A stretch of 64,000 bases of DNA. Origin: Bacillota bacterium (lineage in GTDB: Bacteria > Bacillota > Clostridia > Christensenellales > UBA1242). The position numbers were made by a program, and so were the translations under genes. The notes under the pieces were generated by a model. That model was given only the letters and a program-made list of their open reading frames with translations. It was not told where the DNA came from and made no database searches. Location of the stretch: positions 132,935 through 196,934 of the forward strand of contig WRCD01000002.1 in assembly GCA_009784185.1 (NCBI GenBank). Direction: 5' to 3'. Position 1 is the first letter of the stretch. The number at the start of each line of letters is the position of its first letter. This document shows positions 7,549 to 55,328 of this stretch, piece after piece.

Positions 7549-10500
7549 TTGAAAAAGTTTGCGCTGTACATATGTTTGTGCATACTTAGTTCGGTGCTGG
7601 TGCTTGCCGGCTGCGGCAACCCGCTGGACGGGCTTTCTGTATCTGCGCAAAGCGAAAAGATTTTGATAACCGGCGGTGTAAAAACAATTGCCCTGGAAAT
7701 AAATGCAGACAACGAGAACTTAAAGTCGGCAACCATTACGGCAGACATAACCGGCGGTGCAAGACACCTGTCGCGCCTTGCCAACTTTACCAGCACTCAG
7801 CCCGATAAAGTGGCGGTAACCGATACAACAATCATTGACGGCAAGTCGGTTGCAACCATAACCGCCATTAAGCCTACTGTAGCCGAAGACAGCGTGTTTA
7901 TAAGAGTAACCAGCCGTGATTCATCCCAGATTTTAGACATAGTGCGCGTAACCGTAAAAAAGGATATTGACAACTTCTTTTTAAAAAGCGCCGGCGCGGT
8001 AGGAGTGCCGGTGGGGGAGCCAACGGTTGTTATGCCGGCATCGTATTTTGGGTTCAGTCCTATAGACACCTCCGAAACCGGCTTGTTGTATACAATAGAC
8101 GGACCAGGAGCATCTTATAGCAATCATCCAAGCAGCCAGCCTATAACTTTTTCTTCCCCAGGCGTTCATACGGCTTTTGCTACAAGCGCAGCTAAGCCCG
8201 ATATGAAAATAGTTTTGTTTACAATACGTGCCTACACTAAGCTTACAACATCAAATGTGAGCTTGTCCAGGCTGGACCAGCACCAGCCGGTTATAACCGA
8301 GCTTACATTAACCAAAAACTCCGGCGTTCAGGGTGCCAACTACGCCATTTTACAAATTAACGGCCCTGCCGGAGAAGTACTGGACATATCTGTAACAGAT
8401 TCTGCGGGTGCGTTGGGCAAAAGCCTATGGCATACAATTAATCAGGCAAACCAGACCATAGAGCTGTACGGTACCGGGATTGTATCAACAACCTTAAACA
8501 TCAGCGTTTGTGTTGCGGGAGTAATAAATCCGCAGTTTTTGCCGCTGTCATTACCTGTAAAGGTAATTGACCTGCCTGAAAGCATTGTTTTTAACAGCCC
8601 TCACGACTCACAGCCGGAGATTACGGTTTATACGGTAGCAAATTACCAGTCTTCGGGCACATTTGGTCAGCTGCTTATTCCCGTTCTTACACCAACAAAT
8701 GCCGATGACACAAGGTTTGGAATACGGGTAATAAGCGGAGATACAAGCAGTTTTGTTGTTAGGGCGGGCAATAATGCAGAGACGCCGGTAAACCTTGATA
8801 TAGTTCGGCCGTTTGATTCAAACACTAAGCTTTGGCTGGCACACACCGACCCAAAAACAGGGGAAATTGAGCTGGAGATTTATGCCTTTGCACGTGAAAA
8901 CAATCCGTATAGCAGCAGCCTGACAAGAAGGATAACCGTATTATTAAAGCATGGTGTGCAGACAATTGATGTTACCAGCGGTCTGAATTCGGCCGGAAAT
9001 ACTATTGCGCTTCAGCTTGGCGCCGGTCCGGACAGACAGATAGATTTTACTCCTGTGCCGATAAACGCCGATACCAGAGACATCCGGGTAAGCATAAACG
9101 ACCCTTCAATAGCGGATATTGTAGACAAAGAGATTACATATATAGAATCGTATATAAATACGGGGCCGCTTGCAGGCGAGCTTTATGAAGCCGGCAGGTT
9201 TTTTATCGTTCCTAAAAAAGCCGGTAAAACTTTTATCACGTTCTGGGCAAGCACGGGGCTTTCTAAACGCATTGAGATAGAGGTTGTTGCGGTGCCGGAG
9301 GCAAACGGCATAAAAATATGGCCTGCAGACGGACAGGGGAGTGTTGTTGCAGACACAATACCTAAAACGCTTGCCGAAGGCACGTTGCAGGAAATTCATG
9401 TATCAAGTTCCAGAAACATTCAGCTGCAAAACTTGTTTACGCCTTTCGACTCATCGGTAACCGGCTTTACGTTTACCAATGCGGAAACTGCCGTTGCCAG
9501 TATTTCTAACTCAAGCCCGGCTACTACCTGGATATTTTCGCGCAGTTCAGGCCGCGTGGTGGTTACGCCCACCGTGTATTTTAAAATTGTTGATGAAAAT
9601 TTTGACATAGTTTCGGACAGCCGCATCCTGCCGGATATTACCATTGTGGTATATATGCCGGTAAGCGGTATAGAAACATCTGCAAGACAAGTGCAGTTGT
9701 ATATGGATACGGGCGGAAGAAGCCCCTATACCACCGAGCTGTCGGTTGCCGAGCTTGCTGTATCTGTTTTTCCTAGCGTTGCTACAACCAAAGCTTCCAG
9801 TGCTGTATGGCATTTTAGCGGAAGTCAGAACTATGTAAGGCTGGTAGGTGCGTCAGGGGGAGTTGTTGTAGGTGACAAGGTTAAGATTGAGATTGTACCA
9901 AACGCATCCTTATCCGGTACGTATACGGCAACACTTGTTGTAACAATTAGCGACTACAACCGGGTTTTTGCGCAGGAGATTTCGGTAATTTTGCGTCATT
10001 CAACCCCGGTTTCATATGTGATGGTAGACAACTATCATATGAATGACGGAATATATTTTGAAGAGCGTCAAGGTTTATATCCGGTAAATCAGACCCATAA
10101 TTTTACTATAATTCCTACAATTGTGCCCAGCAGCGCCACAAACCAACAAATTTTTTATCTGGTTTACGATAAGGTCAATGACGTGTGGGAGCGCAAAACA
10201 GGCGCTACTTCAAGTTATATCAGATTAGTTGAGAACCAGAACGGCAGGATGGTAATTTATCCGATTTCGGCAGGCGAGAGCCAGGTTTATGTTGTTGCCG
10301 CCGACCGGCTTTTAAAAAGAGTTGAAGACGTTACCGCCACCAGTTTAACGAATGATATATTAACCAATACCGATGCCCACAGCTGGGTTAGGCTGAACAT
10401 AACAGTAAGCAACGGAAGCAAAGAAAACCCATATAGGATAAACACGGTTCAGGACTTTAAAGACATTAATAAGGCAATGGACAAACATTACGAGCTAAGA

Positions 10501-19500: not shown

Positions 19501-22500
19501 CCTATTGGCATAAGCCCCGCCGAAAGCGGCACCACATTTGCAGGGATGATAGGCAAAGCCGATAAGCAGTACTACATCCAGACCACAAATGCCGATGAGA
19601 CTGCAATTCCGGTTGATATGCTCCAGTCTGCAAATATAAGTTTTGGCGGGTTCTTTAACGGCAACGGATACACGCTTGCTGCCAAGCCGTACGCAAGCAT
19701 TTGGGCAGGTTCCGGCCTGCAATCTGCAGGTAAGCTGGGTGTGTTTGACAGCATAGGCGGATTTGCTGACGAAAACAACATTACGTTAACCCAGAAGGCA
19801 AATGCGGCTTTTGTAACAGGCGTAACGGTAACGGGCATTGATATAGACTTCCGTTCAACCCGGGAGACGTTAAACGTTGGCGGACTTGCTAACCGTATTG
19901 GCAGGTATAGCATTGTTGCAAGCACATCGGTTGAAGGCAATATAAATGTGCTGAGCGATTACAAAGTTGCTGCCGCGGCAGCAGACTCCGCTATAAATGC
20001 CGGCGGTTTTGCGGCAGAAAACCACGGGCAGATTATAAACAGTGCATCCCGCGTAAGCATTACTGTTGGCGGCAACAGTGCTGCCAACATAGGCGGATTT
20101 GCGGGAGTTACTAAAGGCGGCAGTTTTGCAAGCTACAACGGCACGTATCACTTTGGCAGTATAACCGACAACACAACCGAAGTTTTGCCGGTAAACAAAT
20201 CTAATGCCGGCGGCTTTACCGGAAACGAGGTAGACTTTGCTGCAAGAGCATACAACTCATATGCCGTATCTGATATAAGCAAAAAAGCCGGGGCTACCGG
20301 CAGCCTTGGCAGCTTTGGCGGAGCAGCCGGCTCTGTAACGCTTCTTTCGGGCAGCAATGTAAGCTATGACAGCCGGCTTGGCAGCGGCCAAACTGATGCG
20401 GCAGGCATAACTCCGGATGTGCAGAGGAAAAATATAAGTGAAGACTCCGGCGGAGTAAGAATCAGCTGGTTTAAAGCGGATAACAGCATTAACGAGGGCT
20501 GGCCATATATCCCGGATGTGGATACAATAAACACTTCCACCGGAATAGAACCACGAGCTGCAGTAGCTACAGGCAACGGAGACCCCGACAAGCCATACCT
20601 TATAAGAAGCAGCGGTCAGTTTGAATGGATGGTAAACAACTCGGGCACAGGCAAACACTTCAGCCTTGAAACTGATGTTAATGTAGCCGGGTATGGCTTA
20701 ACCAGCCCTAACTTTAGCGGAACCTTGCTTGGCAACGGTCATACGGTAAGCGGACTGACACAGGCATTGTTTACTAATATTACCGGAAAGGTACATCAAC
20801 TGGGAATTATCAGCGAATCAAACACGTCACATTATGCGCTTGCAAGCGAAACACTAACTGCAGGGAGCAGCGTAACGGAATGTATGGTTGAGAGCGGACC
20901 GGCAGCTAAAGGATTTGTCAGGACTAACGACGGAATGATAGAAGACTGTTATATTGTTTCAGATGCAATTACTTTAATCCTTAACGGAAGCGGTCAGACA
21001 AAAAGAGTTCGCAAGGCATCTGAATTAGAATCAATCACTACATACGAAAGTCTGATAGTGAAAACCGAAGGAAAAGAGTTGCTGCCGGTGTTTGGCACTA
21101 TCTGGGGCATGATGCCGGATTCTACAGCCAACGGTTTAGAGAGTGCAATTAAGGTGCTGGCGCCTCGTCTGCTGGCTTTTGAGAAAAAGGCCTCCGATAT
21201 AGATGTGTCGGACACATTCCTGCAAGGCACCTACATTACTTCATTAGTTGTTGAAATTGCAACAAAAAAAGAGTTTGTTAAATACGCAAATTATATAAAC
21301 AAGCATGGTGCATCGGTTTTAGATGCTGTCATAAACAACGATATTAATTTTGCCGGACACCTGTTTGCGCCAATTAACCAAGACAGCAAAAACGGTGACC
21401 GAATTATTCTTAACGGCAACGGCAAGACATTGCTGAACCTGGCCGTTTTGGGCAATGAAGAAATGGGCGGTCTGTTTGGCGCAACAGCCGGTGGCCAAAC
21501 TGGCATCAGCAGCATTAAAAACCTGAACCTGGTTAACAGTGTTTCATACGGTAAAAATGCCGTTGGCTTACTGGTTGGAAATATGCGCGGTGATATTGAC
21601 TCCGTTATTGACATCGTAGAAGCCAAAAACAGTGTGGTATATGCCAGCGGAGACAAAATTGGCGGCATTGCCGGCAATGTGGAGCAAGGCGGAAAAATAA
21701 CGAGCCCAACATTGGTTAACTGCTATGTTGACGGAGGGAGTTCTGTTGGCGGCGTTGCCGGTATATTGAGCGGACTTAATACAATATCCAAACCAATTGT
21801 GCAAAACGCCAAGATAAACTACATATCAACACAGAAAGGAACCGACATACCTGATACACTTAAAGAAGTGGGCGGAATAGTTGGTGCTTCCAAACTCACA
21901 ACAAACACAATAAGCCACACAACAGGCTCATACGCGATAGTTGCAGATGCAGCTACTGTTGTATACGGATACTCGTCTGTTGGCGGAGTGGCCGGAGTTA
22001 ACGGGGGCGATATTAAGTGGCTCAGGTCTGACGCGGCAGTAAACGCCGTGTATATCAGTGGTAAAAACGGCCATGATGTTATTAAAGGATACAACAGTAA
22101 CATCGGTGGAATTGTGGGGGTCAACTCTACCCTCAGCAATATTACGGAAGTAGAGTTTAAAGGAACGGTTAATAAACCGCTGACTAATCCTCTATTCCCG
22201 CCGTTTGATATAACTACCGCAAACAATGTTGGCGGAATTGCGGGGGACAATGCAGGAAGTATTAGCTGGAGTAAAACAACAGGGGCCGAGGTGCATGGAA
22301 TCAGTAATGTTGGAGGCATTGCGGGGCTAAACTCCGGCATAGGCAACATAAACAACTGTACAAACAATGCAAATGTGTACGGAGCAAGAAACGTTGGCGG
22401 TATTGCCGGCAAGGTTGTTGCAACGGCGCCGGGGCAGTTAGGCACTCCATCGGTTTCCAAGTCGGCCAACCTGTTTGGCAAGGTTGAAGGCAGACATCTT

Positions 22501-27181: not shown

Positions 27182-28761
27182 TGAAAACAAACTCGTTTAT
27201 GCTGGGTGCTGCGGTATTGGCGGCAGGCGGGCTTGTTGCAAAGCTGATAGGGGCTGTATATCGCATTCCGCTTACTCATGTGTTAGGCACTGAGGGGCTT
27301 GGAGTATACCAGCTGGTTTTCCCATTATATTCGCTGCTTTTAATTTTATCCGGCAGCGGAGTGCCAACGGCATTATCTAAGCTTATTTCAGAACGCGCGG
27401 CGGCCGGAGAGGTGAGTGAGGCCGGCAGAATCCTGCACCTGAGCCTGATATTGTTTTCCGGCATTGGGCTTGTCTGCGGACTTATTATATTTTTGGGGGC
27501 CGATTTGTTTGCGGCGTGGCAAGGCAACGCTATGGCTGCAGCGGGTTTTAAGGCAATTGCGCCTGCCGTGCCGCTTGTAGCGGTTTTATCCTGCTTCAGA
27601 GGTTATTTTCAAGGCTTATCCAAAATGAGCCCGACAGCAATCAGTCAGGTGGCAGAGCAGCTGTTTAAGCTGGTGCTGGGTTTAAGTTTGGCATATATCT
27701 GGGGCGTGTTTGGAGCTGTGCTCGGTGTAATGCTTAGCGAAGCGGTGGCGGTGGTTTATATGCTTTCGGTCTATTTTTCCACCCGCAAAAAGCTAAGGCT
27801 TAAGCAAGGCAAGCCCGGTAATGTTACAAACAAACAGCTGGCCGGTCAAATATTAAAAACTACCGCTCCAATTGTGCTGGCTTCCGGTATTTTACCCCTG
27901 ATACTTTTAATAGACAGTCTGGTTATAGTAAATACTTTAAAAAGTATAAACTACACTGCCGAACAAGCAACAATTCTTTACGGGCTGCATTCGGGCGTGG
28001 TTAATTCGGTTGTTAACCTGCCGGTAGTATTAAGTCTGGCGGTAGCCACGGCCTTAGTTCCGGCAGTTGCCGGCAGTAAGATTATGGGGTATAAATCGGC
28101 TTCTGAAAAGGTAAATAAGGCTGTCAGGGTCTCGCTGATTATTTCTGTGCCGTGTGTGATTGGTTTTGTTTTACTTACAGACGACATTCTGGCTTTTTTA
28201 TACGCCGGCAGCTTAAGTCCGGGGTCGATAAACGAACCGGCCGTTGCTGCTGTTTTGCTTCAAATCGGCAGTGCAAGTGTGCTGCTCATGGCTATGTTAC
28301 AGATTTTTACTTCTGCACTTCAGGGCATAGGCAAAACAATGGTGCCTGTATGCGCGTTGAGCGCAGCAGGTGTAATTAAACTGGCGTTAAGCTTTATGCT
28401 GATATCTTTGCCGGGAATTAACATTTACGGTGCCGCAATTGCAAATCTGGTTTGCTTTTTTGTGGCTGTAGTTATAAACTTATGGTTTATATTAAAACAC
28501 GTTAAGCTTAAATTGTCTGTAAAAACAAGCCTTCTGCCGCTTGTTTTTTCAGGTGCGGTAATGGCAGGCGTTGCAGCGTTGCTTAAATGGGGGCTTGCCG
28601 GCATAAACACATATGTAAGTCTGCCGGTAATTGTTCTGTCTGCTGCTTTGGTTTTTGGCGGAGTGTTGTATCTGACCGGCGGCGCGGAAGACTTTTTAGA
28701 AATGTTTAAAAAACGTAAAAAAGTTAACAATTTTAATAAACAAAAAAGGAGAACAAAATGA
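27181..28761 (+). CDS. MOP-superfamily flippase (YabM/SpoVB/MurJ-like polysaccharide biosynthesis protein)
   Basis: 526 aa with about 14 hydrophobic segments. Start overlaps the spoVT stop (TAATG). The spoVT-yabM order matches B. subtilis synteny. Confidence 0.7.
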   Translation: MKTNSFMLGAAVLAAGGLVAKLIGAVYRIPLTHVLGTEGLGVYQLVFPLYSLLLILSGSGVPTALSKLISERAAAGEVSEAGRILHLSLILFSGIGLVCGLIIFLGADLFAAWQGNAMAAAGFKAIAPAVPLVAVLSCFRGYFQGLSKMSPTAISQVAEQLFKLVLGLSLAYIWGVFGAVLGVMLSEAVAVVYMLSVYFSTRKKLRLKQGKPGNVTNKQLAGQILKTTAPIVLASGILPLILLIDSLVIVNTLKSINYTAEQATILYGLHSGVVNSVVNLPVVLSLAVATALVPAVAGSKIMGYKSASEKVNKAVRVSLIISVPCVIGFVLLTDDILAFLYAGSLSPGSINEPAVAAVLLQIGSASVLLMAMLQIFTSALQGIGKTMVPVCALSAAGVIKLALSFMLISLPGINIYGAAIANLVCFFVAVVINLWFILKHVKLKLSVKTSLLPLVFSGAVMAGVAALLKWGLAGINTYVSLPVIVLSAALVFGGVLYLTGGAEDFLEMFKKRKKVNNFNKQKRRTK

Positions 28762-29027
28762 ACAGACAAGAACTCATTAAGCAGGTTTCTAAAAGAAGCA
28801 ACCTTACACAAAAAGATTGTGCCCAAATGCTGAAGGCGTTTACTGATATCATTGGGCAGGCGCTAAAGTCCGGAGAAGAAGTAAAGGTTATGGGATTTGG
28901 CAGGTTTTACACAAAACACCTTTCAGAGCGCAACGGATACAACCCGCTGACCGGACAAAAAACACGGCTGAAGGGCGCTTATATACCAAGTTTTAAGTGC
29001 AGTGCACAGCTAAAACGCATAATTTAG
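28758..29027 (+). CDS. HU/IHF-family DNA-binding protein (divergent paralogue)
   Basis: MNRQELIKQVSKRSNLTQKDC...GFGRFYTKHLSERNGYNPLTGQ: HU fold signature (GFG.F....R.GRNP.TG). ATGA overlap with the upstream flippase gene. Confidence 0.8.
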   Translation: MNRQELIKQVSKRSNLTQKDCAQMLKAFTDIIGQALKSGEEVKVMGFGRFYTKHLSERNGYNPLTGQKTRLKGAYIPSFKCSAQLKRII

Positions 29028-29406: not shown

Positions 29407-30356
29407 TTGTTAGAGGGCAGAATTAAAAGGAAGGGGTGCGGAGCACCTCTTCTTTTTGTATGCTTAGCACCAATGGCCGGATATACCGATGTGGCTTTCC
29501 GCAGCTTGTGTGCCGGCTTTGGAGCAAGTCTTACCACTACCGAAATGGTAAGCGTGCTTGGATTAATGCACAACAGCAAGGCAACACATGAACTGCTTTT
29601 TACCGAACCTAACGAGAGCCCTAAAGAGGTTCAGCTGTTCGGTTCTAATCCGGAAGCTTTTAGCCGGGCGGCAGGTCATCCGTTTTTAGAAAAGTTTGAT
29701 ATAATAAATATTAATATGGGCTGCCCGGTTCCCAAGGTGTTTAAACAGGGCGAGGGCTGCGCGCTTATGGCAAATCCGGAACTGGCTTACAAAATAATTA
29801 CCGCCTGTACAAAAAACACAAACAAGCCGGTTACGGTAAAGTTCAGGCTGGGTTTAACCGCCGATACCATTAACGCTGCGGAGTTTGGAAAAATGTGTGA
29901 ACAGGCGGGTGCCGGCAGCATTACGGTACATGGCAGAACCCGCCAGCAAGGGTACGGCGGCAGGGCCGACTGGAACGAAATAGCCAAGGTAGTGCGGGCA
30001 GTTAAAATCCCGGTTATTGCCAACGGAGATGTTTGCTGCAGGGATGATTTAATAAAGGTAAAAGAAGTAACCGGTTGTGCGGGAGTTATGATAGGCAGAG
30101 CCGCACTCGGCAGACCGTGGATTTTTAATGAAATTTTGCATGGGGGGGGCAGCGGCCCGATTTGTATAACGTTATTTCCGAACATTACCGGATACTGCTA
30201 AAATACTTTCCGGAAGCAAAAACCGTATCCGAAATGAAGAAGCATTTAATGTATTATACCAAGGGCTTACCTGAGGCAAAAATGTTCAGGCTGAAACTGT
30301 TTGAGCTGAATAATGTAAATGACATTTTAAATACATTAAGAGATATACTAAAATAG
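29407..30356 (+). pseudogene. dus: tRNA-dihydrouridine synthase split by a frameshift in a G8 run (true pseudogene, phase variant or homopolymer sequencing error)
   Basis: The TIM-barrel part (LAPMAGYTDVAFR...GRAALGRPWIF) ends at 30201. The C-terminal helical part (LYNVISEHYRILLKYFPEAKTVSEMKKHLMYYTKGLPEAKMFR) continues in another frame to 30356. The frames meet at GGGGGGGG 30142-30149. Nine (or six) G would give one ORF of about 316 aa. Start is TTG 29407 or ATG 29473; the ORF-track start 29224 overlaps hup. Confidence 0.8.
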
Positions 30357-46826: not shown

Positions 46827-47345
46827 GTGCAAACAAATATTACATTGTTCTGTTTTTTGAATAATTATAGCAAGAATATAGCCAAGATACTGGCCGACAA
46901 GCTGGAAATGTTTTATGTGGATTTTGCCGAACTTCTGGAGTACGAGCTGGTTGACAGCGGAAACATTATTACTGCACTTGGCAAGCGTGACGGAAATAAA
47001 TATATAAGCGGTATAGAGCAAAAATTAATAAAAACCGTAAATGAATATGAAAACACAATTATAACTATTAATCCGGTTAAGTTGTTTTCTGCCAAAAATT
47101 CGGCCGCGTTCAAAAAGAGTAGTTTTTTGGTGTATCTCCAGGTTGCTCCAAACATAATGGCAAACAAAGCGGAAGAGACCGGTGATAAAACAGAACCGGA
47201 ATTGATAGGTGCGGGCTTTTCCGAGCGCGATAAGTTGTACGTAACCAACAGTGATATTGTAATTGACTGCACAAAATTAAAAGAAAAGAAAGCGGTTAAG
47301 TTATTGATTAAGGAACTAAAGAATTTATTTAAGAGTAGGGCTTGA
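46827..47345 (+). CDS. Shikimate-kinase-like protein with degenerate P-loop
   Basis: GTG start. By eye, NITLFCFLNNYSKNIAKILADKLEMFYVDFAELLE aligns to AroK [35 protein letters not shown]. The Walker-A glycines and the later GGG motif are lost. 172 aa. Confidence 0.35.
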   Translation: MQTNITLFCFLNNYSKNIAKILADKLEMFYVDFAELLEYELVDSGNIITALGKRDGNKYISGIEQKLIKTVNEYENTIITINPVKLFSAKNSAAFKKSSFLVYLQVAPNIMANKAEETGDKTEPELIGAGFSERDKLYVTNSDIVIDCTKLKEKKAVKLLIKELKNLFKSRA

Positions 47346-47373
47346 TTCCCCTCTAACTTAGAGGGGAATTTTG
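47346..47373 (+). terminator. Hairpin (family-1 hairpin-1-only copy, reverse orientation) plus T run
   Basis: TTCCCCTCT-AACT-TAGAGGGGAATTTT directly after the stop. Only about 25 nt before the tkt TTG start, so probably leaky. Confidence 0.5.
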
Positions 47374-47396
47374 TAATGTGATAAAAGGGGTAATAT

Positions 47397-49391
47397 TTGG
47401 AACAAGACAACAAAGCAGTAAACACAATAAGGGTGCTGGGGCTGGACCAGATTACAGCCGCTAAAAGCGGACACCCGGGCATGGTGCTTAGTGCGGCACC
47501 TGTTTTGTATGCGCTGTTTAAAGACCATCTGGTGCTGGACAGCAGTAAGCCCGGCTGGTTTAACCGCGATAGGTTTGTGTTAAGTGCGGGGCATGGCAGT
47601 GCGCTTTTGTATAGCACTCTTCATTGTTTTGGATTCAACATAAGCATGAATGACCTTAAACAGTTCAGGCAAACCGGCAGCCGTACGCCCGGCCATCCGG
47701 AGCTTGACATGAGTATCCCGATTGAATGCGCAACCGGGCCATTAGGGCAAGGCATAAGCATGGGTGTTGGAATGGCTTTGACGGAGAAACATTTGTCTGC
47801 TAAGTTTAACAAGCCAAACCTGAATATTGTTGACCATTACACATATGTGCTTGTCGGTGACGGAGACCTGATGGAAGGTGTAAGTTATGAGGCAATAGAG
47901 CTGGCCGGCGTACACAAGCTTAACAAATTAATTGTGCTGTACGACAGCAACGAGCACACCATTGAGGGAAGAACAGAAATAGCAGGCCTTAACCAAACCA
48001 GACAGCGTTTTGAAGCCGCCGGCTTTAATGTGATTGAGGTAATAGACGGCAACGACACAGTAAAAATAAGCAAGGCTATTGCTGAGGCTAAAAAAAGCAA
48101 AGACAAACCGAGTATTGTAGTTGTAAACACGCAAATCGGCTTTGGAAGCCATGTAGTTGATAACATAAAAAGTCATGGCACGCCGTTTACCTTAGATGAA
48201 ACTCAAGCAGTACGAAGTAATTTTGGATTGACTGATAAACCGTTTACTGTGCCGGCTGATGTATATAAAACCTGCAAAACGGACATAAGCACACGCAGCC
48301 ATGCGGCACGCAAAAACTGGGATAGTTTAATTAAAACATATAAGACTAAGTTTAAAAAAGAATATAAGCAGCTGTTTAACAATCAGTCGGTATCTGCAGA
48401 GAAATGTATAACCAGCCTTAAGTCCACAAGTGATATGGCAACGCGTGATGCCGGGCACCTGGTGCTTAACTATATTGCCGGGCTTCCTATTAACCTGATT
48501 GGAGGTTCTGCCGATTTGGCGCCTGCCACTAAGGCCTTTCTGGCGGGTGAAAAGAGTTTTTCAGCCGTTAATCCAACAGGCAGAAATATTCACTTCGGAG
48601 TTCGTGAATTTGGAATGGCGTGCATAACAAACGGAATGATACTGCACGGCGGGCTTAAAGCGTTCTGCTCAACCTTCTTTGTTTTTGCGTGCTACCTGAG
48701 GCCCGCAATGAGGCTGGCAGCACTAATGAAAACGCCAAGTGTGTTTATATTCAGCCATGACTCGCTTTATGTGGGGGAGGATGGAGCAACGCATCAGCCG
48801 GTGGAGCAGCTGGAGTCTATAAGAATTATACCGGGCATGAGTCTGTTTAGGCCATGTGACTTAAACGAAACGGCAGGTGCATATGAGGCGGCTTTTAATT
48901 CTAATGAAGGCCCAACCAGCATTGTGTTGTCGCGGCAGACATTGCCGTACCTTAAGGGTTCTGCCGGCGGCACTTTGCAAGGCGGGTATGTACTGCACAA
49001 GGAAACCAGCCAGTTAAACATAGTGCTGGTTGCAACAGGCGGAGAGGTTGGGCTTGCGGTGCTGGCTAGAACCGAGCTTGTTAAAAAAGGCTATGGTGTG
49101 CGCGTGGTTAGTATGCCGAACAGGGAACTGTTTCTGCGGCAGCCGGAAAAATATAAGGCCGGTGTGCTGCCGGCTGATTGTGAGAGCATAATGGTTATTG
49201 AAGCCGGCACAAGCCATGGCTGGTATCCAATTGCCGGGCAATACGGGTTGGTGGTTGGAGTAGATGACTTTGGCAAATCCGGACCGGGCAAAGAAGTATA
49301 CGAGAGTTTCGGTTTTAGTGTAGACAACATAGTTAAACAGGCTGAGGCACTTATAAAGAAGAACAAGAGCATAGTAAAAAGCGTGGTGTAA
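47397..49391 (+). CDS. tkt: Transketolase
   Basis: AAAGGGG SD then TTG start. SGHPGMVLSAAP, GDGDLMEGVSYEA and GEDGATHQPVEQL motifs. 664 aa. Confidence 0.95.
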   Translation: MEQDNKAVNTIRVLGLDQITAAKSGHPGMVLSAAPVLYALFKDHLVLDSSKPGWFNRDRFVLSAGHGSALLYSTLHCFGFNISMNDLKQFRQTGSRTPGHPELDMSIPIECATGPLGQGISMGVGMALTEKHLSAKFNKPNLNIVDHYTYVLVGDGDLMEGVSYEAIELAGVHKLNKLIVLYDSNEHTIEGRTEIAGLNQTRQRFEAAGFNVIEVIDGNDTVKISKAIAEAKKSKDKPSIVVVNTQIGFGSHVVDNIKSHGTPFTLDETQAVRSNFGLTDKPFTVPADVYKTCKTDISTRSHAARKNWDSLIKTYKTKFKKEYKQLFNNQSVSAEKCITSLKSTSDMATRDAGHLVLNYIAGLPINLIGGSADLAPATKAFLAGEKSFSAVNPTGRNIHFGVREFGMACITNGMILHGGLKAFCSTFFVFACYLRPAMRLAALMKTPSVFIFSHDSLYVGEDGATHQPVEQLESIRIIPGMSLFRPCDLNETAGAYEAAFNSNEGPTSIVLSRQTLPYLKGSAGGTLQGGYVLHKETSQLNIVLVATGGEVGLAVLARTELVKKGYGVRVVSMPNRELFLRQPEKYKAGVLPADCESIMVIEAGTSHGWYPIAGQYGLVVGVDDFGKSGPGKEVYESFGFSVDNIVKQAEALIKKNKSIVKSVV

Positions 49392-49406
49392 CCCGCGCTT
49401 TTTATT
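49373..49406 (+). repeat. Direct repeat copy 1 (tkt 3' end plus terminator hairpin)
   Basis: AGTAAAAAGCGTGGTGTAACCCGCGCTTTTTATT encodes ..VKSVV* of Tkt, with the stop in the hairpin loop. Stem is GCGTGG/CCGCGC with one G-U pair. Confidence 0.85.
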
Positions 49407-49419
49407 TTACAAAAGGGTA

Positions 49420-49448
49420 TTGCATTGTGTCCGTTTGTGTTGTATACT
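49420..49448 (+). promoter_or_regulatory. Sigma-70-type promoter placed for a leaderless transcript of the 597-aa orphan gene
   Basis: TTGCAT (49420-49425), 17-nt spacer, TATACT (49443-49448), then 6 nt to ATG 49455. Confidence 0.5.
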
Positions 49449-49454
49449 TTGTGC

Positions 49455-51248
49455 ATGGAAAAAGAAGAGAATGAACTGGACGCAAGTGCAATGCAGAACG
49501 AGCTGCTTAGTCTGGCGGCAAAAGATTTTGCCGGCGTAGAAATTGCTATACCGGTTTACAACAAAAACGGGAATCTTAACTGGCCGCAAAACATGTTTGG
49601 CCCGGACCCTAAGTACGCTGCAGAAGTGAGAGAAAACTTAAAAAAATACGGACGATTGGTAGAAGGCAGTCCCGAACTGGAAGAGTACTTTATAAGCATT
49701 TTAGAAAACTGGCGTCCGGATGACAGTCGTCGCGGTTTTCACGGCGAAGGGGCATCAGAAGCGTATGATAACGCACGGGATGAGGGGCTCGTTACCGATG
49801 GAGAAACTTCCGCCTTTGCAGCCACTTATATCCTTAAGTTTATTACTGAAAATAAGGTTAACCCTGAGTTTGTGCAGGATATTTTTACGCAAATCTGGGA
49901 AGATTCGGTAATGCTGCTGGACTACAAAACGGATGAGTTGAAGCGCACCATAGGAATCAGGGGACGTTTTTTGGGGGAAGACTCCGATGCCGTAGCACCG
50001 ATGCAGCGGATGCTGGATAACATCAAGAAGGATTGGGAGGACGACCTGCTGGAAGTTGCTCGTCAACTTTTTGGTGCTGAAAATCCTGCATATGACCATA
50101 CAAGGCTGGAGTCCTTGCACCTATACAATGTTGCGCGCCAAAAGGGCTGGCGCACGCCCGAGGGAAGTGTTGAGGATAAGTTATCTAAGCTTGTATTAAC
50201 CTTTTGTAAAAACACCGTTGTATATTGGTCTGCGCCGGAAAACATAAGCCGGATACCGGTTGAGGACAGAGACATGCTGCTGGATTGCATTCATTACTTA
50301 AAAGACCCTGTGCGTGATTTTAAGCCTGAGGAATACAGCAGAAACCTGCCTGCCATAGTTAGTAATAGCAACCTGCCGAGTGCGGCACAGTCTTTTGCAG
50401 TGGTGCAGAAAAACCTGAATGCGGTTAATGTAAAAACCCTGGATGGCGACTATGTAAGCAAATGGGCTAAGGCGGGCGAGATATCACGATATTACGGTCT
50501 TCGTACTCAAGTAAAAATGTCAAAGTTAATGACAGATGAAGCTGCAACCGGATTTCTTTTAGAACTTTTAAAAGACGAAGACAGGGATGGAGAATGTGAT
50601 GTACACGAGCAACTTGTGGAGCGTGCCAGCGACCCGGCAATACGGCTGGAACATTTAAAAAAGAGTTATGGTTTCGGCTATGACTTTAAAGGAATAGATG
50701 AGGCGTATGCTGTGCTTGCATACGATGTGAAAGCCGGCAAGTATTCAACCGAAGAGATTTTAGGCATGAGCGAAGCCGAGCAACAGGTTGTTTTAGCTAT
50801 ACTTGAGCGTAATGCTCATAGAATGAACCAGGATGGAACAGACAGATTACAGGATTTGAAAAACATAATTAACCATAACAATACACCATTAGAAAATGTA
50901 AAAACTCCGTTTGGCGGAAAAGTGCTTAAGGCATACATTACTACCTTGGGAGAATATGGCGGATACGATGATTTGCTTGATGCAATAGACTTGGCACTTG
51001 AGTCCGGCACAAAAGAAGTTTCGGCAAAGCTGATGAAATCAAAGGTTGTTTCAGTCGGTTCATATCATCGCAGCAAAATAGACAAAGCAAAAGCAAAAGG
51101 TGAAGAGATAAGCGAATACCACACTGAACATTTAGCAAGGCTTCAGCCATATGTTGACAAGCTAAGCGAGATGGTTAAGGCAGAATGGTACGCATCAAAC
51201 CTGCCTCCCAAAGAGCCTGAAGACAAAACTAAACAACATGGAGAGTAA
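49455..51248 (+). CDS. Hypothetical acidic soluble protein (597 aa from ATG 49455; 607 aa from TTG 49425)
   Basis: Long uninterrupted ORF with no TM or signal peptide. No motif recognised by eye. Flanked by direct repeats. Confidence 0.6.
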   Translation: MEKEENELDASAMQNELLSLAAKDFAGVEIAIPVYNKNGNLNWPQNMFGPDPKYAAEVRENLKKYGRLVEGSPELEEYFISILENWRPDDSRRGFHGEGASEAYDNARDEGLVTDGETSAFAATYILKFITENKVNPEFVQDIFTQIWEDSVMLLDYKTDELKRTIGIRGRFLGEDSDAVAPMQRMLDNIKKDWEDDLLEVARQLFGAENPAYDHTRLESLHLYNVARQKGWRTPEGSVEDKLSKLVLTFCKNTVVYWSAPENISRIPVEDRDMLLDCIHYLKDPVRDFKPEEYSRNLPAIVSNSNLPSAAQSFAVVQKNLNAVNVKTLDGDYVSKWAKAGEISRYYGLRTQVKMSKLMTDEAATGFLLELLKDEDRDGECDVHEQLVERASDPAIRLEHLKKSYGFGYDFKGIDEAYAVLAYDVKAGKYSTEEILGMSEAEQQVVLAILERNAHRMNQDGTDRLQDLKNIINHNNTPLENVKTPFGGKVLKAYITTLGEYGGYDDLLDAIDLALESGTKEVSAKLMKSKVVSVGSYHRSKIDKAKAKGEEISEYHTEHLARLQPYVDKLSEMVKAEWYASNLPPKEPEDKTKQHGE

Positions 51249-51279
51249 ACAAAGCGTGGTGTAACCCACGCTTTTTATT
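51244..51279. repeat. Direct repeat copy 2 (bidirectional terminator)
   Basis: AGTAAACAAAGCGTGGTGTAACCCACGCTTTTTATT. The 29-nt core 51251-51279 matches 49378-49406 with 1 mismatch. It retains the GTGGTGTAA codons of the tkt end in a non-coding context. Confidence 0.85.
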
Positions 51280-51280
51280 A

Positions 51281-51619
51281 TTATATAACCTCTATCTTTA
51301 TCGTTACAACGCCGTATCTCTTTTCTTCTTCCGGAGAGTAAATCTTGTAGCATTCGTTAACTATCTCGTCAGGCGATGACCCGTCAAATCCCAGTTCTGT
51401 TGCGGGTATTGTTTCGCATATTTCATAAAACGACTTAAAGCTGATAATCTCAGTGATTTGTGTGATGCACTTTTCTGTTAACTCGGGACGCAGCAGAAAG
51501 GTGAGCGTGTCTCCAATTTTAAAATTGCGCCGTTTTTCATCATTCAGTCTGATTTCGTACAGCTTAGCACCGCTTTTGATTAGCTCAAAATGCGGCTTTT
51601 CTATTCTGACTGTGTGCAT
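51281..51619 (-). CDS. ASCH (PUA-like) domain protein
   Basis: GAGGAG SD. MHTVRIEKPHFELIKSGAKLYEIRLNDEKRRNFKIGDTLTF resembles ASCH-domain N-termini (..F..I..G.KT.E.R....k..GD.l.f). 112 aa. Confidence 0.55.
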   Translation of the reverse strand: MHTVRIEKPHFELIKSGAKLYEIRLNDEKRRNFKIGDTLTFLLRPELTEKCITQITEIISFKSFYEICETIPATELGFDGSSPDEIVNECYKIYSPEEEKRYGVVTIKIEVI

Positions 51620-51639
51620 AGGTTTTACTCCTCGAATAA

Positions 51640-51766
51640 AATTCTCCTTTAAGATAAAGGAGTACCCCGAAGGGGGGAGGTATGTGAAATAGATGGAAAA
51701 GCAATAAGACTGGCTTTATCACATACCCCGCTGCTCCGCAGCACCCCTTTATCTTAAAGGGGAATT
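51640..51766. repeat. Family-1 two-hairpin element, inverted dimer (MITE-like, 127 bp)
   Basis: Left unit 51640-51687 and right unit 51719-51766 (reverse complement) flank a 31-nt centre. GGTATGTGA / TCACATACC also pair. Confidence 0.85.
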
Positions 51767-51803
51767 ATTGGTTTGTCCGCCTTTGCTGGGGGAATTTTTC
51801 TGA

Positions 51804-54800
51804 TTACTCACTAGCCAGCTTTTTCAGTTTAGCAAGCAACGCAATACTATCCTGCTTGCTTTTTTCAATCAGTGCATCGGCCTCTTTGGGGTTGTTTTTA
51901 TAAAGGTTTGCAAATCTGCGCTCGCTCAGCACATATTCCTTATAATCGCCCGTAACCGGCGGGCTATCGAGTATTAGCGGATTTTTACCCTGTGCTGCAA
52001 GCTCCGGATTGTATCTGAATAAATTCCAGTATCCGCACGCCACAGCCTTGCGCATCTGCAGGTTTCCGTTGCTCATATCTATTCCTTGTTCAATGCAGGT
52101 GCTATACGCAATTACAATGCTTGGGCCCTTGTGCGCTTCCGCTTCACGGAGCGCCTGAAGCGTCTGGTTCATGTTTGCTCCCATTGCAACCTGCGCCACA
52201 TATACGCCGGGATACGCCATTGCCATAAGCGCAAGGCTCTTTTTTGCGCTCTGCTTGCCGCCGTTTGCAAACTTAACCACGCTTCCGGCAGGCGTTGCCT
52301 TGCTGGCCTGTCCGCCGGTGTTGCTGTATACTTCGGTATCCAGCACAAGAATGTTTATATCACTGCCTTTAGCAAGAACATGGTCAAGGCCTCCGTAGCC
52401 AATGTCGTACGCCCAGCCGTCGCCGCCTATGCACCATACCGATTTTTTAACAAACAGGTCGCGGTTTGCCAGGATGGTTTCGGCCGCACCGTCTGCTGTG
52501 CCGTTACGGGCAGTTTTGTATCCCTTGGTAAGCAGAGGGTAGTTTATTTCTGTTTCAAGTGCTGCTGCTAATTTTGCCGAAGCAATTTTATTCTCATTCT
52601 CGTTTTCATAAGTCCGCATCCATTCTTTCAGCTCGGGTGAACTTTTAGCCTTTAGCTCAATTGCTTTTTCGGCAAATCCAAATAGCTGCTTAACTCGCGC
52701 ATCCAATGCAAGCTTAATGCCAAATCCGAACTCGGCGTTGTCCTCAAACAAACTGCTTGCCCAAGCCGGACCCACGCCGCGCTTATTTGTGCTGTACGGG
52801 CATGAAGGGTAACTTCCTCCGTATATGCTGGTGCAGCCGGTTGCGTTTGCAATTATCATCCTATCACCAAACAGCTGACTTACCAATTTGATATACGGTG
52901 TTTCTCCGCAGCCGGCACACGCACCGTTAAACTCAAAGTACGGCTTTAAAAACTGACTGTCTTTTACAGTGATACCCGTAGTTGCCGGATTGTCTATGTT
53001 TTTGTAGAAATTATAGTTTTCTGTTTCTGTTTTGAACAATGCTGTGTCAGCGTTCATTTCAAGTGCCTTTATCTTGGTAGGGCATACATTAACACACGCT
53101 CCGCAGCCTGTGCAGTCCAGCGGGCTGGTCTGCAGGCGGAACTCGTATCCGGGCTTGCCCGTTGCAGGCAAGGTAACTGCTGCGCTTTTTTCTTTTTGAT
53201 TTTTTGTCACTAAATATGGCCTTATTGCCGCGTGCGGACAAACAAATGAACAAAAATTGCATTGAATACAATTTTCCGGCTTCCATTCGGGGATGCTGCT
53301 GGATATGCCGCGCTTTTCAAATCTGGTGGTGTCGGTTGGGATTCTGCCGTCGGCGGTAAACGCAGATACGGGCAATTTGTTTCCTTCAAGCCTTGCAATC
53401 GGTTTCATATTGTTGATGCAAAACGGTGTGTAATCATCTGATACGGTTGTATCAATTGTGTCTTTGGCGTTTTTCCAAGCTTCGGGTATTTTAACTGCAA
53501 CAAGCCTCTCCCCGGCTAAAGCAATTGCCTTGTAGTTTTGCTCCAATACCTTTTCGCCCGCTTTGGCGTAACTCTTTTTTGCGGCATCACGCATAAGTTC
53601 TTTTGCTTTAGCGTAGTCCATTATTTTGGATAACTTAAAAAACGCAGACTGCATAATGGTGTTTATTCTGCCGCCCAGGCCCAATTCATGTGCAATGACA
53701 TTTGCGTCAATTGTGTAGAACCTGGCCTTTTTATTATAAATCTGCCGCTTTAGGCTTGCAGGCAGTTCCTGCTCAAGCTCGGCAATGCTCCAGGGGGTGT
53801 TTAACAAAAATGTGCCGCCCGGCGCAAGTTTAGCCAGCAAATCGTATTTGCCTATATACCTGCTGTTGTGGCAGGCTAAAAAGTCGGCTTGCTCAATTTC
53901 ATAGGTGCTTTTTATCGGCTTGCTGCCAAACCGCAGGTGAGAAATTGTAATACTTCCGCTCTTTTTGCTGTCGTATACAAAATAGGCTTGAGCGTATTTG
54001 TTGGTGTTATCGCCTATAATTTTGCAGGCGTTTTTGTTTGCGCTTACGGTTCCGTCACTGCCTAGGCCGAAAAACATACAATTGGTGTTGCCTGTGTCCG
54101 GCAGATGAAACTCCGGCACGGCCAATGAAGTTTTTGATATATCATCATTAATTCCAACAGTAAAATGGTTTTTGGCTTTTACTCCGGTGTTGGCTAAAAC
54201 TGCCATAATCATAGCGGGGTTAAACTCCTTGCTGCCAAGGCCGTATCTGCCGCCCAGCACCTTAATGCCGGATTTGCCGGATTCCAACATCGCGGTGCAT
54301 ATATCTGTGTACAGTGGTTCACCGGCACTGCCAGGCTCTTTAGTCCGGTCAAGTGCAATAACCGTTTTTACGCTTGCGGGAAGCACCTTTACAAAGCCGG
54401 CTATATCAAACGGGCGGTATAGCCGCACTTTAACGAGGCCCGCTTGCTTGGTGCCGGTTTTGTTGTAATGAGTTAATGTTTCTTCTATCGCCTCACAAGC
54501 ACTGCCCATGGCTACAATTACGGTTTCTGCCTGCTTGCTGCCAAAATATTCAAACGGAGCATAGCCTCTGCCCGATAGTTTCTTAAATTCTGCACAGGTT
54601 TTAACAAATTCTTTATAAACAGCGTTGTAATACGGGTTGCACGCTTCACGGTTCTGGAAAAACACATCCGGGTTTTGAGCGGTGCCTTGCTGATGCGGAT
54701 GCTCCGGATTAAGTGCTCTGGCTCTGAACTCGGCCATTTTCTCGTACGGAAGCAGATATTTTGCGTCATCTATGGTTAATGTGCTGATATTGCTTATTTC

Positions 54801-55328
54801 ATGGCTGGTTCTGAAACCGTCAAAGAAATGCAGAAACGGCACTCTGGTCTTTAATGAAACCAACTGGCTGATAATTGCAAAATCATGTGCTTCCTGAACG
54901 TTGTTGCTTGATAGCATTGCAAAGCCCGTTTGCCTGCAGGCCATAACGTCCGAGTGGTCGCCGAATATTGACAGAGCATGGGTGCTAAGCGCACGTGCAG
55001 TTACATGAATTACGCATGGCAATAATTCGCCCGAAATCTTGTACATATTAGGAATCATTAAAAGAAGCCCCTGGCTGGCAGTAAAGGTTGTTGCAAAACC
55101 GCCCGCAGCCAGTGCACCGTGCAATGCGCCGGCAGCACCCGCCTCGGACTGCATTTCAACCACGCTCATGGTGGTACCAAAAACATTCAGTTCGCCGCGG
55201 CTGGCCATTTCGTCACAGACTTCCGCCATTGGCGAACTTGGCGTGATTGGGTAAATGGCCGCAATTTTGTTTAACAAATATGCTGCTTTTGCCGCAGCCG
55301 TATTTCCATCCAAAGTTTCTTTTTTCAT
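51804..55328 (-). CDS. nifJ: Pyruvate:ferredoxin (flavodoxin) oxidoreductase
   Basis: AAGGAG SD. 1174 aa. Two 4Fe-4S ferredoxin motifs (CIQCNFCSFVCPHAAIRP, CTGCGACVNVCP). TPP-binding region GGDGWAYDIGYGGLDH. Confidence 0.95.
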   Translation of the reverse strand: MKKETLDGNTAAAKAAYLLNKIAAIYPITPSSPMAEVCDEMASRGELNVFGTTMSVVEMQSEAGAAGALHGALAAGGFATTFTASQGLLLMIPNMYKISGELLPCVIHVTARALSTHALSIFGDHSDVMACRQTGFAMLSSNNVQEAHDFAIISQLVSLKTRVPFLHFFDGFRTSHEISNISTLTIDDAKYLLPYEKMAEFRARALNPEHPHQQGTAQNPDVFFQNREACNPYYNAVYKEFVKTCAEFKKLSGRGYAPFEYFGSKQAETVIVAMGSACEAIEETLTHYNKTGTKQAGLVKVRLYRPFDIAGFVKVLPASVKTVIALDRTKEPGSAGEPLYTDICTAMLESGKSGIKVLGGRYGLGSKEFNPAMIMAVLANTGVKAKNHFTVGINDDISKTSLAVPEFHLPDTGNTNCMFFGLGSDGTVSANKNACKIIGDNTNKYAQAYFVYDSKKSGSITISHLRFGSKPIKSTYEIEQADFLACHNSRYIGKYDLLAKLAPGGTFLLNTPWSIAELEQELPASLKRQIYNKKARFYTIDANVIAHELGLGGRINTIMQSAFFKLSKIMDYAKAKELMRDAAKKSYAKAGEKVLEQNYKAIALAGERLVAVKIPEAWKNAKDTIDTTVSDDYTPFCINNMKPIARLEGNKLPVSAFTADGRIPTDTTRFEKRGISSSIPEWKPENCIQCNFCSFVCPHAAIRPYLVTKNQKEKSAAVTLPATGKPGYEFRLQTSPLDCTGCGACVNVCPTKIKALEMNADTALFKTETENYNFYKNIDNPATTGITVKDSQFLKPYFEFNGACAGCGETPYIKLVSQLFGDRMIIANATGCTSIYGGSYPSCPYSTNKRGVGPAWASSLFEDNAEFGFGIKLALDARVKQLFGFAEKAIELKAKSSPELKEWMRTYENENENKIASAKLAAALETEINYPLLTKGYKTARNGTADGAAETILANRDLFVKKSVWCIGGDGWAYDIGYGGLDHVLAKGSDINILVLDTEVYSNTGGQASKATPAGSVVKFANGGKQSAKKSLALMAMAYPGVYVAQVAMGANMNQTLQALREAEAHKGPSIVIAYSTCIEQGIDMSNGNLQMRKAVACGYWNLFRYNPELAAQGKNPLILDSPPVTGDYKEYVLSERRFANLYKNNPKEADALIEKSKQDSIALLAKLKKLASE

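Follow-up and report, generated by a model that had tools for sequence, protein, structure and literature searches.

Gene units that lack mobility genes and are flanked by unique, target-derived direct repeats have been described as insertions with long target duplication (Nobusato et al. 2000; Furuta, Abe & Kobayashi 2010, PMC2853133), a class for which the mechanism is unknown. The criterion applied is a duplication of >30 bp, and the repeats may extend into the neighbouring gene at its 3′ end, as in Haemophilus influenzae, where a unique target duplication of 46 bp includes 15 bp of a gene 3′ end (PMC2853133). In phages, the moron concept denotes a promoter-gene-terminator unit (as summarised in PMC2839356), and the promoter-early stem-loops (PeSLs) of T4-type phages, which are dispersed, conserved motifs of ~100 bp present in many copies per genome, form cassettes for which mini-circles have been shown (Arbiol et al. 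2010, PMC2839356). Here, these systems are compared with a locus in an uncultured member of the Bacillota (assembly GCA_009784185.1, contig WRCD01000002.1, positions 132,935 to 196,934), a stretch of 64,000 nucleotides (nt) that is referred to below as the window. At this locus, a gene coding for a protein of 597 amino acids (P0001) is located between the transketolase gene (tkt) and a convergent ASCH-domain gene, and is bracketed by two near-identical copies of a short direct repeat. With a probability of roughly 0.6, the arrangement results from a single past insertion with target duplication, which placed a promoter-bearing gene in the convergent spacer behind tkt, a variable slot.

The direct repeat consists of AAAGCGTGGTGTAACCCGCGCTTTTTATT at positions 49378–49406 and AAAGCGTGGTGTAACCCACGCTTTTTATT at 51251–51279, with 28/29 identical positions and a spacing of 1873 nt, as had been noticed in an earlier, sequence-only reading of this DNA. 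Copy 1 (plus strand) coincides with the end of a full-length tkt (47397..49391, plus strand; 664 amino acids; Pfam transketolase; TIGR00232, 783 bits) and carries its codons AAA AGC GTG GTG TAA (K-S-V-V-stop), with these last codons forming the left arm and the loop (TGTAAC, 6 nt) of a hairpin that is followed by a T-run. The hairpin stem is perfect, with 9–14 bp and no bulges. The predicted folding energy of the RNA hairpin is −17.6 kcal/mol (z = −5.55) for copy 1 and −13.9 kcal/mol (z = −4.2) for copy 2, each being followed by a U-run, and copy 2 folds with −15.0 kcal/mol on the minus strand and was terminator-like on both strands in a consensus scan. Both copies are predicted intrinsic terminators and would be expected to function as such. 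The sole mismatch between them, G to A in the right arm, exchanges a U-A pair for a G-U pair and leaves the stems of both copies intact. Only these two matches occur in the window when up to three mismatches are allowed, with none in 100 dinucleotide-preserving shuffles, and exactly two copies occur in the whole genome (1.16 Mb in 19 contigs, ≤2 mismatches). The exact repeat pattern had no matches among the GTDB species genomes and JGI metagenome contigs. An assembly artefact can be set aside since the assemblies of two further samples (ERZ27257304, 102-kb contig; SRR10512951, 5.3-kb contig), which are 100 % identical to the window along the 12.3 kb and 5.3 kb compared, respectively, reproduce both copies. 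The suggestion that the similarity extends further 5′ to AGTAAA found no statistical support. This extension, which would lengthen the repeat to 35–37 nt, requires a 2-nt gap and is compatible with chance, and neither the downstream side nor the upstream side of the two copies (p = 0.07 over 60 nt; p = 0.53 over 30 nt) showed significant similarity outside the 29 nt.

The two copies can be ordered in terms of their origin. The transketolases of three lineages end in KSVV-stop (the window), ESVV-stop and QSVV-stop (the two closer relatives L048 and L051 described below), and copy 2 retains the codons AGC GTG GTG TAA in an untranslated position, as the sequence-only reading had also observed. 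Because the SVV-stop codons are ancestral tkt coding sequence and remain untranslated in copy 2, the second copy must, on the comparison of these sequences, be derived from the tkt end and not the reverse, which argues against both an imported terminator and convergence.

The interval between the repeats holds a single gene (49455..51248, plus strand), an open reading frame (ORF) without any known domain. It is preceded by a putative sigma-70-type promoter, TTGCAT-17 nt-TATACT (49420..49448, plus strand), with the −35 hexamer at 49420–49425, 13 nt after copy 1, and the −10 hexamer at 49443–49448. While this promoter, proposed on the basis of the sequence, can be read at these positions and matches the consensus at 8/12 positions, its −35 hexamer agrees with TTGACA at only 3/6 positions and the whole falls below the threshold of the consensus scan. 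The ATG at 49455 is located 6 nt past the −10 hexamer and lacks a Shine-Dalgarno sequence, so that, should this promoter be used, the gene would probably be transcribed and translated from a leaderless mRNA. The stop codon (51246–51248) lies 2 nt ahead of copy 2, which in turn ends 1 nt short of the stop codon of the convergent ASCH gene (51281–51283); the 32-nt gap between the two convergent stop codons is thus occupied by the copy 2 hairpin. The insert encodes no transposase or integrase, its sole ORF matching no family, and no inverted repeats pairing the insert ends, the hairpin itself excepted, were found in the repeat analysis of the window. An Rfam search of positions 47000–52500 returned nothing at the gathering score.

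Neither 41 relatives nor 400 genomes from the same order carry the gene for P0001. Among the family-level relatives, in which tkt is ~45 % identical, a shikimate kinase-like (SKI-like) gene upstream of tkt is a widely conserved feature, and the PFOR gene is found beside tkt in convergent (L017, L019) or co-directional (L015) orientation, or with one ORF between the two (L020). A protein search with tkt identified two closer relatives (tkt 65 % identical), one represented by the contig L051 and the other by L048, L049 and L050. In L051, nrdD-nrdG-SKI-tkt is followed directly by a convergent PFOR gene, across a 64-nt spacer with one bidirectional terminator. The entire block is kept in L048, L049 and L050 (nrdD-nrdG-SKI-tkt ... 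ASCH-PFOR-truA-rplM-rpsI), with the ASCH gene of L048 being orthologous to that of the window (49 % identity) and in the same place. Here, a gene coding for 317 amino acids, unrelated to the gene for P0001, is located between tkt and ASCH, and has its own consensus promoter, Shine-Dalgarno sequence and terminator, but no flanking repeat. Since the slot is empty in L051 and contains an unrelated gene in L048, the tkt/ASCH junction is, from this gene content, a variable slot that is filled independently in different lineages, with the gene for P0001 being specific to the lineage of the window. The proposal that an accessory gene was inserted at a housekeeping terminator, for which the junction in related genomes had been named as the place to look, is borne out by this comparison.

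Under the favoured explanation, the insertion would have duplicated ~29 bp of the target, comprising the last four codons of tkt, its stop codon and the terminator hairpin (35–37 bp if the gapped AGTAAA were counted). The tkt gene would retain its native C-terminus and its terminator in copy 1, and the weak promoter of the new gene would drive a transcript, probably leaderless, that terminates at copy 2, which could also terminate the convergent ASCH gene. As the unit would have its own promoter and end at copy 2, with tkt keeping its own terminator, the result would be a self-contained, moron-like transcription unit in the otherwise conserved block nrdD-nrdG-SKI-like-tkt/ASCH-PFOR-truA-rplM-rpsI. 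The mechanism favoured for such an event is recombinase-free, and we infer that it may have involved either a staggered break at the feet of the palindromic terminator with subsequent fill-in, or a template switch during replication.

Several observations weigh against an insertion with target duplication. The ungapped repeat of 29 nt is shorter than the >30-bp cut-off used for the described class, and the promoter appears weak by consensus. There is no empty site at the nucleotide level: the nearest relatives without the insert are L051, with its direct tkt-PFOR junction, and L048, with its other gene at the junction, and at a tkt amino acid identity of 65 % these are too diverged for the junction DNA to be aligned. 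A single-copy target is supported only indirectly, by the native tkt origin of the SVV-stop codons in copy 2. The gene is moreover native in composition, with a GC content of 0.447 vs 0.443 for the genome, a native GC content at third codon positions and a codon bias (Karlin B = 0.178) at the 8th percentile of 199 similar-sized ORFs. Given this composition, the near-perfect repeat cannot simply be taken as a mark of foreign DNA that arrived recently; the alternatives are movement of the gene within the lineage and selection that keeps both copies as terminators.

Exact look-ups of the ASCH and RplM proteins for an empty site at the strain level returned only contigs that are 100 % identical to the window, and the same search for the lineage of the homologue P0003 (see below) returned only two contigs that are ~99.85 % identical and some short contigs. 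Four tyrosine-recombinase loci are present in the genome, all on contigs other than that of the window. Nothing indicates an active excision system at the repeats, and present-day mobility of the gene is unsupported. Two 29-bp repeats spaced 1.9 kb apart could nevertheless allow rare precise deletion via slipped mispairing. The description of the gene as cassette-type is thus not supported where a mobile cassette is meant: no attC-like site, inverted ends or recombinase accompany the unit, the repeat is not a genome-wide recombination motif and the codon usage is native.

Of the described systems, insertion with long target duplication is the closest to this locus, and the event would be one already known in kind. 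The locus shares with this class a gene-sized insert without transposase, integrase or inverted repeats, and a genome-unique, target-derived repeat that overlaps the 3′ end of the upstream gene and leaves that gene intact. It differs, apart from the length of the repeat, in that no restriction-modification system forms the cargo, a terminator palindrome is the sequence that was duplicated and no intraspecific genome with an empty site is available. The likeness to phage morons lies in an autonomous, terminator-insulated transcription unit of unrelated function between genes that are adjacent in relatives; of the two features that define a moron, the terminator is predicted, and the promoter is the 8/12 match that fell below the scan threshold. 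Unlike a moron, the unit is located in a housekeeping block (tkt, ASCH, PFOR) rather than a prophage, its gene is native in composition and codon usage, and its terminator was copied from the neighbouring gene, not imported. Transposons and insertion sequences carry a transposase, terminal inverted repeats and short (2–14 bp) target duplications, none of which are features of this unit.

The inserted gene codes for an acidic protein (pI 4.97) which, when judged by eye, has no signal peptide or membrane segment, and for which no family was found in Pfam, NCBIfam, PHROGs or PADLOC. When 1.84 billion cluster representatives were searched exhaustively with phmmer, two relatives were found, P0002 (627 amino acids; 35 % identity, E = 3e-65) and P0003 (37 % identity; 555 amino acids as called, but probably 561 from an upstream ATG), while word-indexed searches with P0001 and with a three-sequence profile returned only the query itself. 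When the family profile was applied to the JGI contigs, the additional finds were a second copy of P0003 and a truncated P0002-like fragment; none were found in viral contigs or GTDB representatives. The gene is consequently not a strict orphan, as had been supposed, as there are two to three homologues at 31–37 % identity, in uncultured bacteria and at other loci. The P0002-like fragment (L036:461–1228), which ends after 255 amino acids on an AT-rich contig, is probably a truncated pseudogene of the family. P0001, P0002 and P0003 align over their full length with 117 invariant positions, including many acidic and basic residues and an LDGDY motif, and this conservation indicates that the ORF is a real protein-coding gene belonging to a very small family. 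An AlphaFold2 model derived from the three sequences is all-alpha (pLDDT 71.5, pTM 0.59). Foldseek comparison of this model against the PDB and BFVD yielded nothing specific, with the best TM-scores (≤0.28) obtained against generic alpha-solenoids and helical repeats and no nuclease, recombinase or RNase-H-like match, and a profile search of the PDB sequences with the family gave no match. The absence of a recognisable motif reported by the sequence-only reading was thus confirmed by the homology and structure searches it had called for, which revealed a few homologues but no known family or fold. The protein resembles a scaffold or enzyme that is helical and soluble, and its family is very small and patchily distributed.

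The three homologous genes share no neighbour. One follows tkt, one follows an ORF of 39 amino acids, and one (P0003) overlaps a DHFR-like gene of 206 amino acids near rplM-rpsI. The 39-amino acid ORF (L004:159–278), which is translationally coupled to P0002, is weakly similar to residues 5–25 of P0001 (ELSQANNEQLSALNKE vs ELDASAMQNELLSLAAKD), and could, when compared with the N-terminal helix of P0001, reflect a gene fusion or fission. On the contig carrying P0003 (L005), a repeat of 30 nt (7358–7387 and 9651–9680; 25/30 identical) flanks the unit that comprises P0003 and the gene of 206 amino acids. This repeat corresponds to the −35 to −10 region of the promoter of the downstream gene, with the stop codon of P0003 located inside the second copy. 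A third, paralogous copy of this promoter is found at about 6150–6290 (= L031:1887–2026). Two of the promoter copies extend into the 5′ untranslated region and signal peptide of paralogous Gly-rich secreted proteins, and the other, of 30 nt, drives the apparently leaderless DHFR-like gene that overlaps P0003.

Inspection of the genome of the window left two comparable cases, both located outside the window. On contig C4, a RhuM-family gene and one for a histidine phosphatase lie between def and exoA and are enclosed by a perfect direct repeat of 27 nt, TGACTATACGCAATTATTTGTTTCCTT (27/27; 102931–102957 and 104538–104564). On the minus strand this repeat comprises the ribosome-binding site, TTG start and four codons (MRIVS) of exoA, and the upstream copy is in frame with the ATG of the RhuM gene; since def is not adjacent to exoA in relatives, their synteny is uninformative in this case. 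On contig C8, three terminators that are 100 % identical (AAAAACCAGCCTAAGCTGGTTTTTTGTT; 28076–28103, 28965–28998 and 29698–29731) separate three minus-strand genes without detectable protein similarity, one of which is Bro-N/KilA-N-like by eye only. Shared local terminator stems are mildly enriched in the genome (6 pairs observed vs 1.4 ± 1.3 in shuffles), and the core ACAGGC recurs in 12/191 predicted terminators. These footprints are suggestive of a general, sequence-independent insertion of genes at gene boundaries, but do not establish it. Two other candidates were rejected as genes between repeats. The pair at C2 93549/94344 belongs to a multi-copy intergenic motif, CCAATCGACCTRCGGAAACAACTTGTYGCACGCG, which occurs three to four times ahead of consecutive, unrelated genes (C2:92477–94375, outside the window) and may represent an operator or a small repetitive element. 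The pair at C1 20430/21059 marks tandem paralogues: the 32-nt repeat (C1:20430–20461 and 21059–21090; 30/32) runs through the seven final codons (..GMKKG), stop codon and Shine-Dalgarno sequence at the junctions of three tandem paralogues which are otherwise 28–29 % identical, so that the junction is far more similar than the genes.

The same layout could have been produced in other ways. A PeSL-type origin, in which a 1.87-kb circle (terminator-promoter-gene) integrated by homologous recombination at the tkt terminator and can loop out again, shuttling the gene between genomes, is unlikely, although the arrangement of stem-loop and promoter, ORFan and stem-loop does resemble that of the PeSL and ORFan in T4-type phages (PMC2839356), with a sigma-70-type promoter and flanks whose recombination could delete or circularise the ORFan. 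The three identical terminators around dissimilar genes on C8 and the different genes in the tkt/ASCH slot of different lineages would be accommodated by such a cassette. PeSLs are, however, dispersed linkers, whereas the repeat occurs only twice in this genome, and its exact pattern had no match among public genome and metagenome contigs; native tkt codons make up its left arm, so that the circle would need to have been excised earlier from the same site, leaving its origin unexplained, and the assemblies of the two further samples are identical, with no gene-less variant. Mobilisation in trans by site-specific recombination, with the 9-6-9 (or 11-6-11) palindrome serving as an attC-like or Xer/dif-like tyrosine-recombinase site and the gene as a mobilisable module, is a distant prospect. 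With palindromic arms around a 6-nt centre and a length of ~28–29 bp, the repeat would be similar to Xer sites in its geometry, and four tyrosine-recombinase loci are encoded in the genome. As in integron cassettes and Xer-dependent dif modules, the module comprises a single gene, and an imperfect palindrome closes it on the 3′ side. Here, however, the palindrome is a textbook terminator with a T-run that does not recur elsewhere, the R′/R″ cores (GTTACAC fails GTTRRRY) and extrahelical bases of attC are lacking, no integron integrase is nearby, the contig of the window has no recombinase gene, and the unit has a promoter-like site of its own, unlike integron cassettes; in addition, the repeats around the other bracketed units (C4 and L005) are non-palindromic and unrelated. 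It is similarly improbable that the second copy is the remnant of a tandem tkt duplication, in which the second tkt was mostly replaced or deleted and its last codons and terminator were left behind the new gene. The retention of tkt codons in copy 2 is what such a remnant would show, and the junction repeat on C1 does mark old tandem paralogues (28 % amino acid identity). The 60 nt upstream of the two copies lack significant similarity, however, there is no tkt-like stretch within 49407–51250, tkt (1995 nt) is longer than the period of 1873 nt, and P0001, which has homologues that are unrelated to transketolase, gives no Pfam transketolase signal. Chance or convergent similarity of two terminators, for which the re-use of terminator stems such as the ACAGGC core might speak, is effectively refuted, as the loop, the stop codon and the flanks outside the stem are also identical and no shuffle gave a match; this applies equally to an assembly artefact, since the copies differ by one base and both recur in the two further samples.

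The protein itself could also be responsible for its insertion. That P0001 is a novel insertion enzyme, and its gene a selfish single-gene element which makes staggered cuts ~30 bp apart and so generates 29–30-bp duplications, is very doubtful. Both family members with two known flanks lie inside unique ~30-nt repeats of local sequence (28/29 in the window, 25/30 in L005), at loci that are unrelated, in organisms only distantly related to each other (RplM 57 % identical), and the rare, patchy distribution and invariant charged residues of the family would suit such an enzyme. These points stand against a single copy per genome without terminal inverted repeats, the acidic pI and the all-alpha model that matches no nuclease or recombinase. 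Furthermore, the repeat in L005 is one of three paralogous promoter copies and its unit holds a second gene, while the comparable repeat on C4 brackets genes without any family member. For the family as a whole, the role of the enzyme of a new single-gene mobile element, inserting at gene boundaries and copying ~30 bp of target, likewise appears very unlikely. A Cas1 'ruler', as in CRISPR/casposon-type integration, was considered and rejected, as no Cas1 (PF01867) was found in the genome, which is 94 % complete. More broadly, though also very unlikely, this termite-gut lineage may possess a recombinase-free insertion process with a ruler of ~27–30 bp, into which the three footprints at the tkt terminator, the exoA start and the L005 promoter would fit.

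The genes around the insert belong to the conserved block. The ASCH-domain gene (51281..51619, minus strand; 112 amino acids) is convergent with the inserted gene and has an orthologue in L048, but is absent in L051, and nifJ/PFOR (51804..55328, minus strand; 1174 amino acids) is the conserved partner of tkt across the junction. In L020 (genome G005), the spacer between tkt and PFOR contains a histidine-phosphatase-like ORF of 228 amino acids (3416–4099; FVRHGE motif), which, judged by its sequence, is another independent filling of this junction. Upstream of tkt, the shikimate kinase-like ORF at 46827–47345 keeps its position in L008, L012, L017, L018, L021, L023, L048 and L051, with 27–47 % identity across the family. 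As this ORF is positionally conserved and, in the two closest relatives, reaches lengths (345 and 269 amino acids) well above the 172 amino acids in the window, the comparison indicates that it is a conserved family gene and not a decaying remnant. Elsewhere in the genome, repeated promoters with a run of 9–11 G between TTGACA and TATAAT (e.g. TTGACAAATGCGTAGGGGGGGGGGCTATAAT) are found at C8:29620–29642, C8:30297–30330, C1:151755–151788 and C1:153276–153299, and look like phase-variable promoters ahead of accessory genes. At the ends of several contigs lie stretches of 123 nt with further copies in the genome (C1:1–123, C6:1–123 and C5:112810–112932), and C1 and C6 start with the same 123 nt, rich in AATATCATT motifs; the assembly appears to break at a repeat.

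The finding by itself reveals no new mechanism. It provides a clean and well-delimited case of gene acquisition by a very small, repeat-rich genome in which the neighbours of the new gene remain undisturbed: with the stop codon and terminator of the neighbouring gene copied, tkt, the new gene and the convergent gene would all stay terminated. The footprint of long target duplication would thereby be extended from restriction-modification cargo in well-studied proteobacteria to a gene of unknown function in an uncultured Firmicute. The tkt/ASCH-PFOR junction represents a variable slot that is usable for comparative work, and P0001 founds a tiny, uncharacterised protein family.

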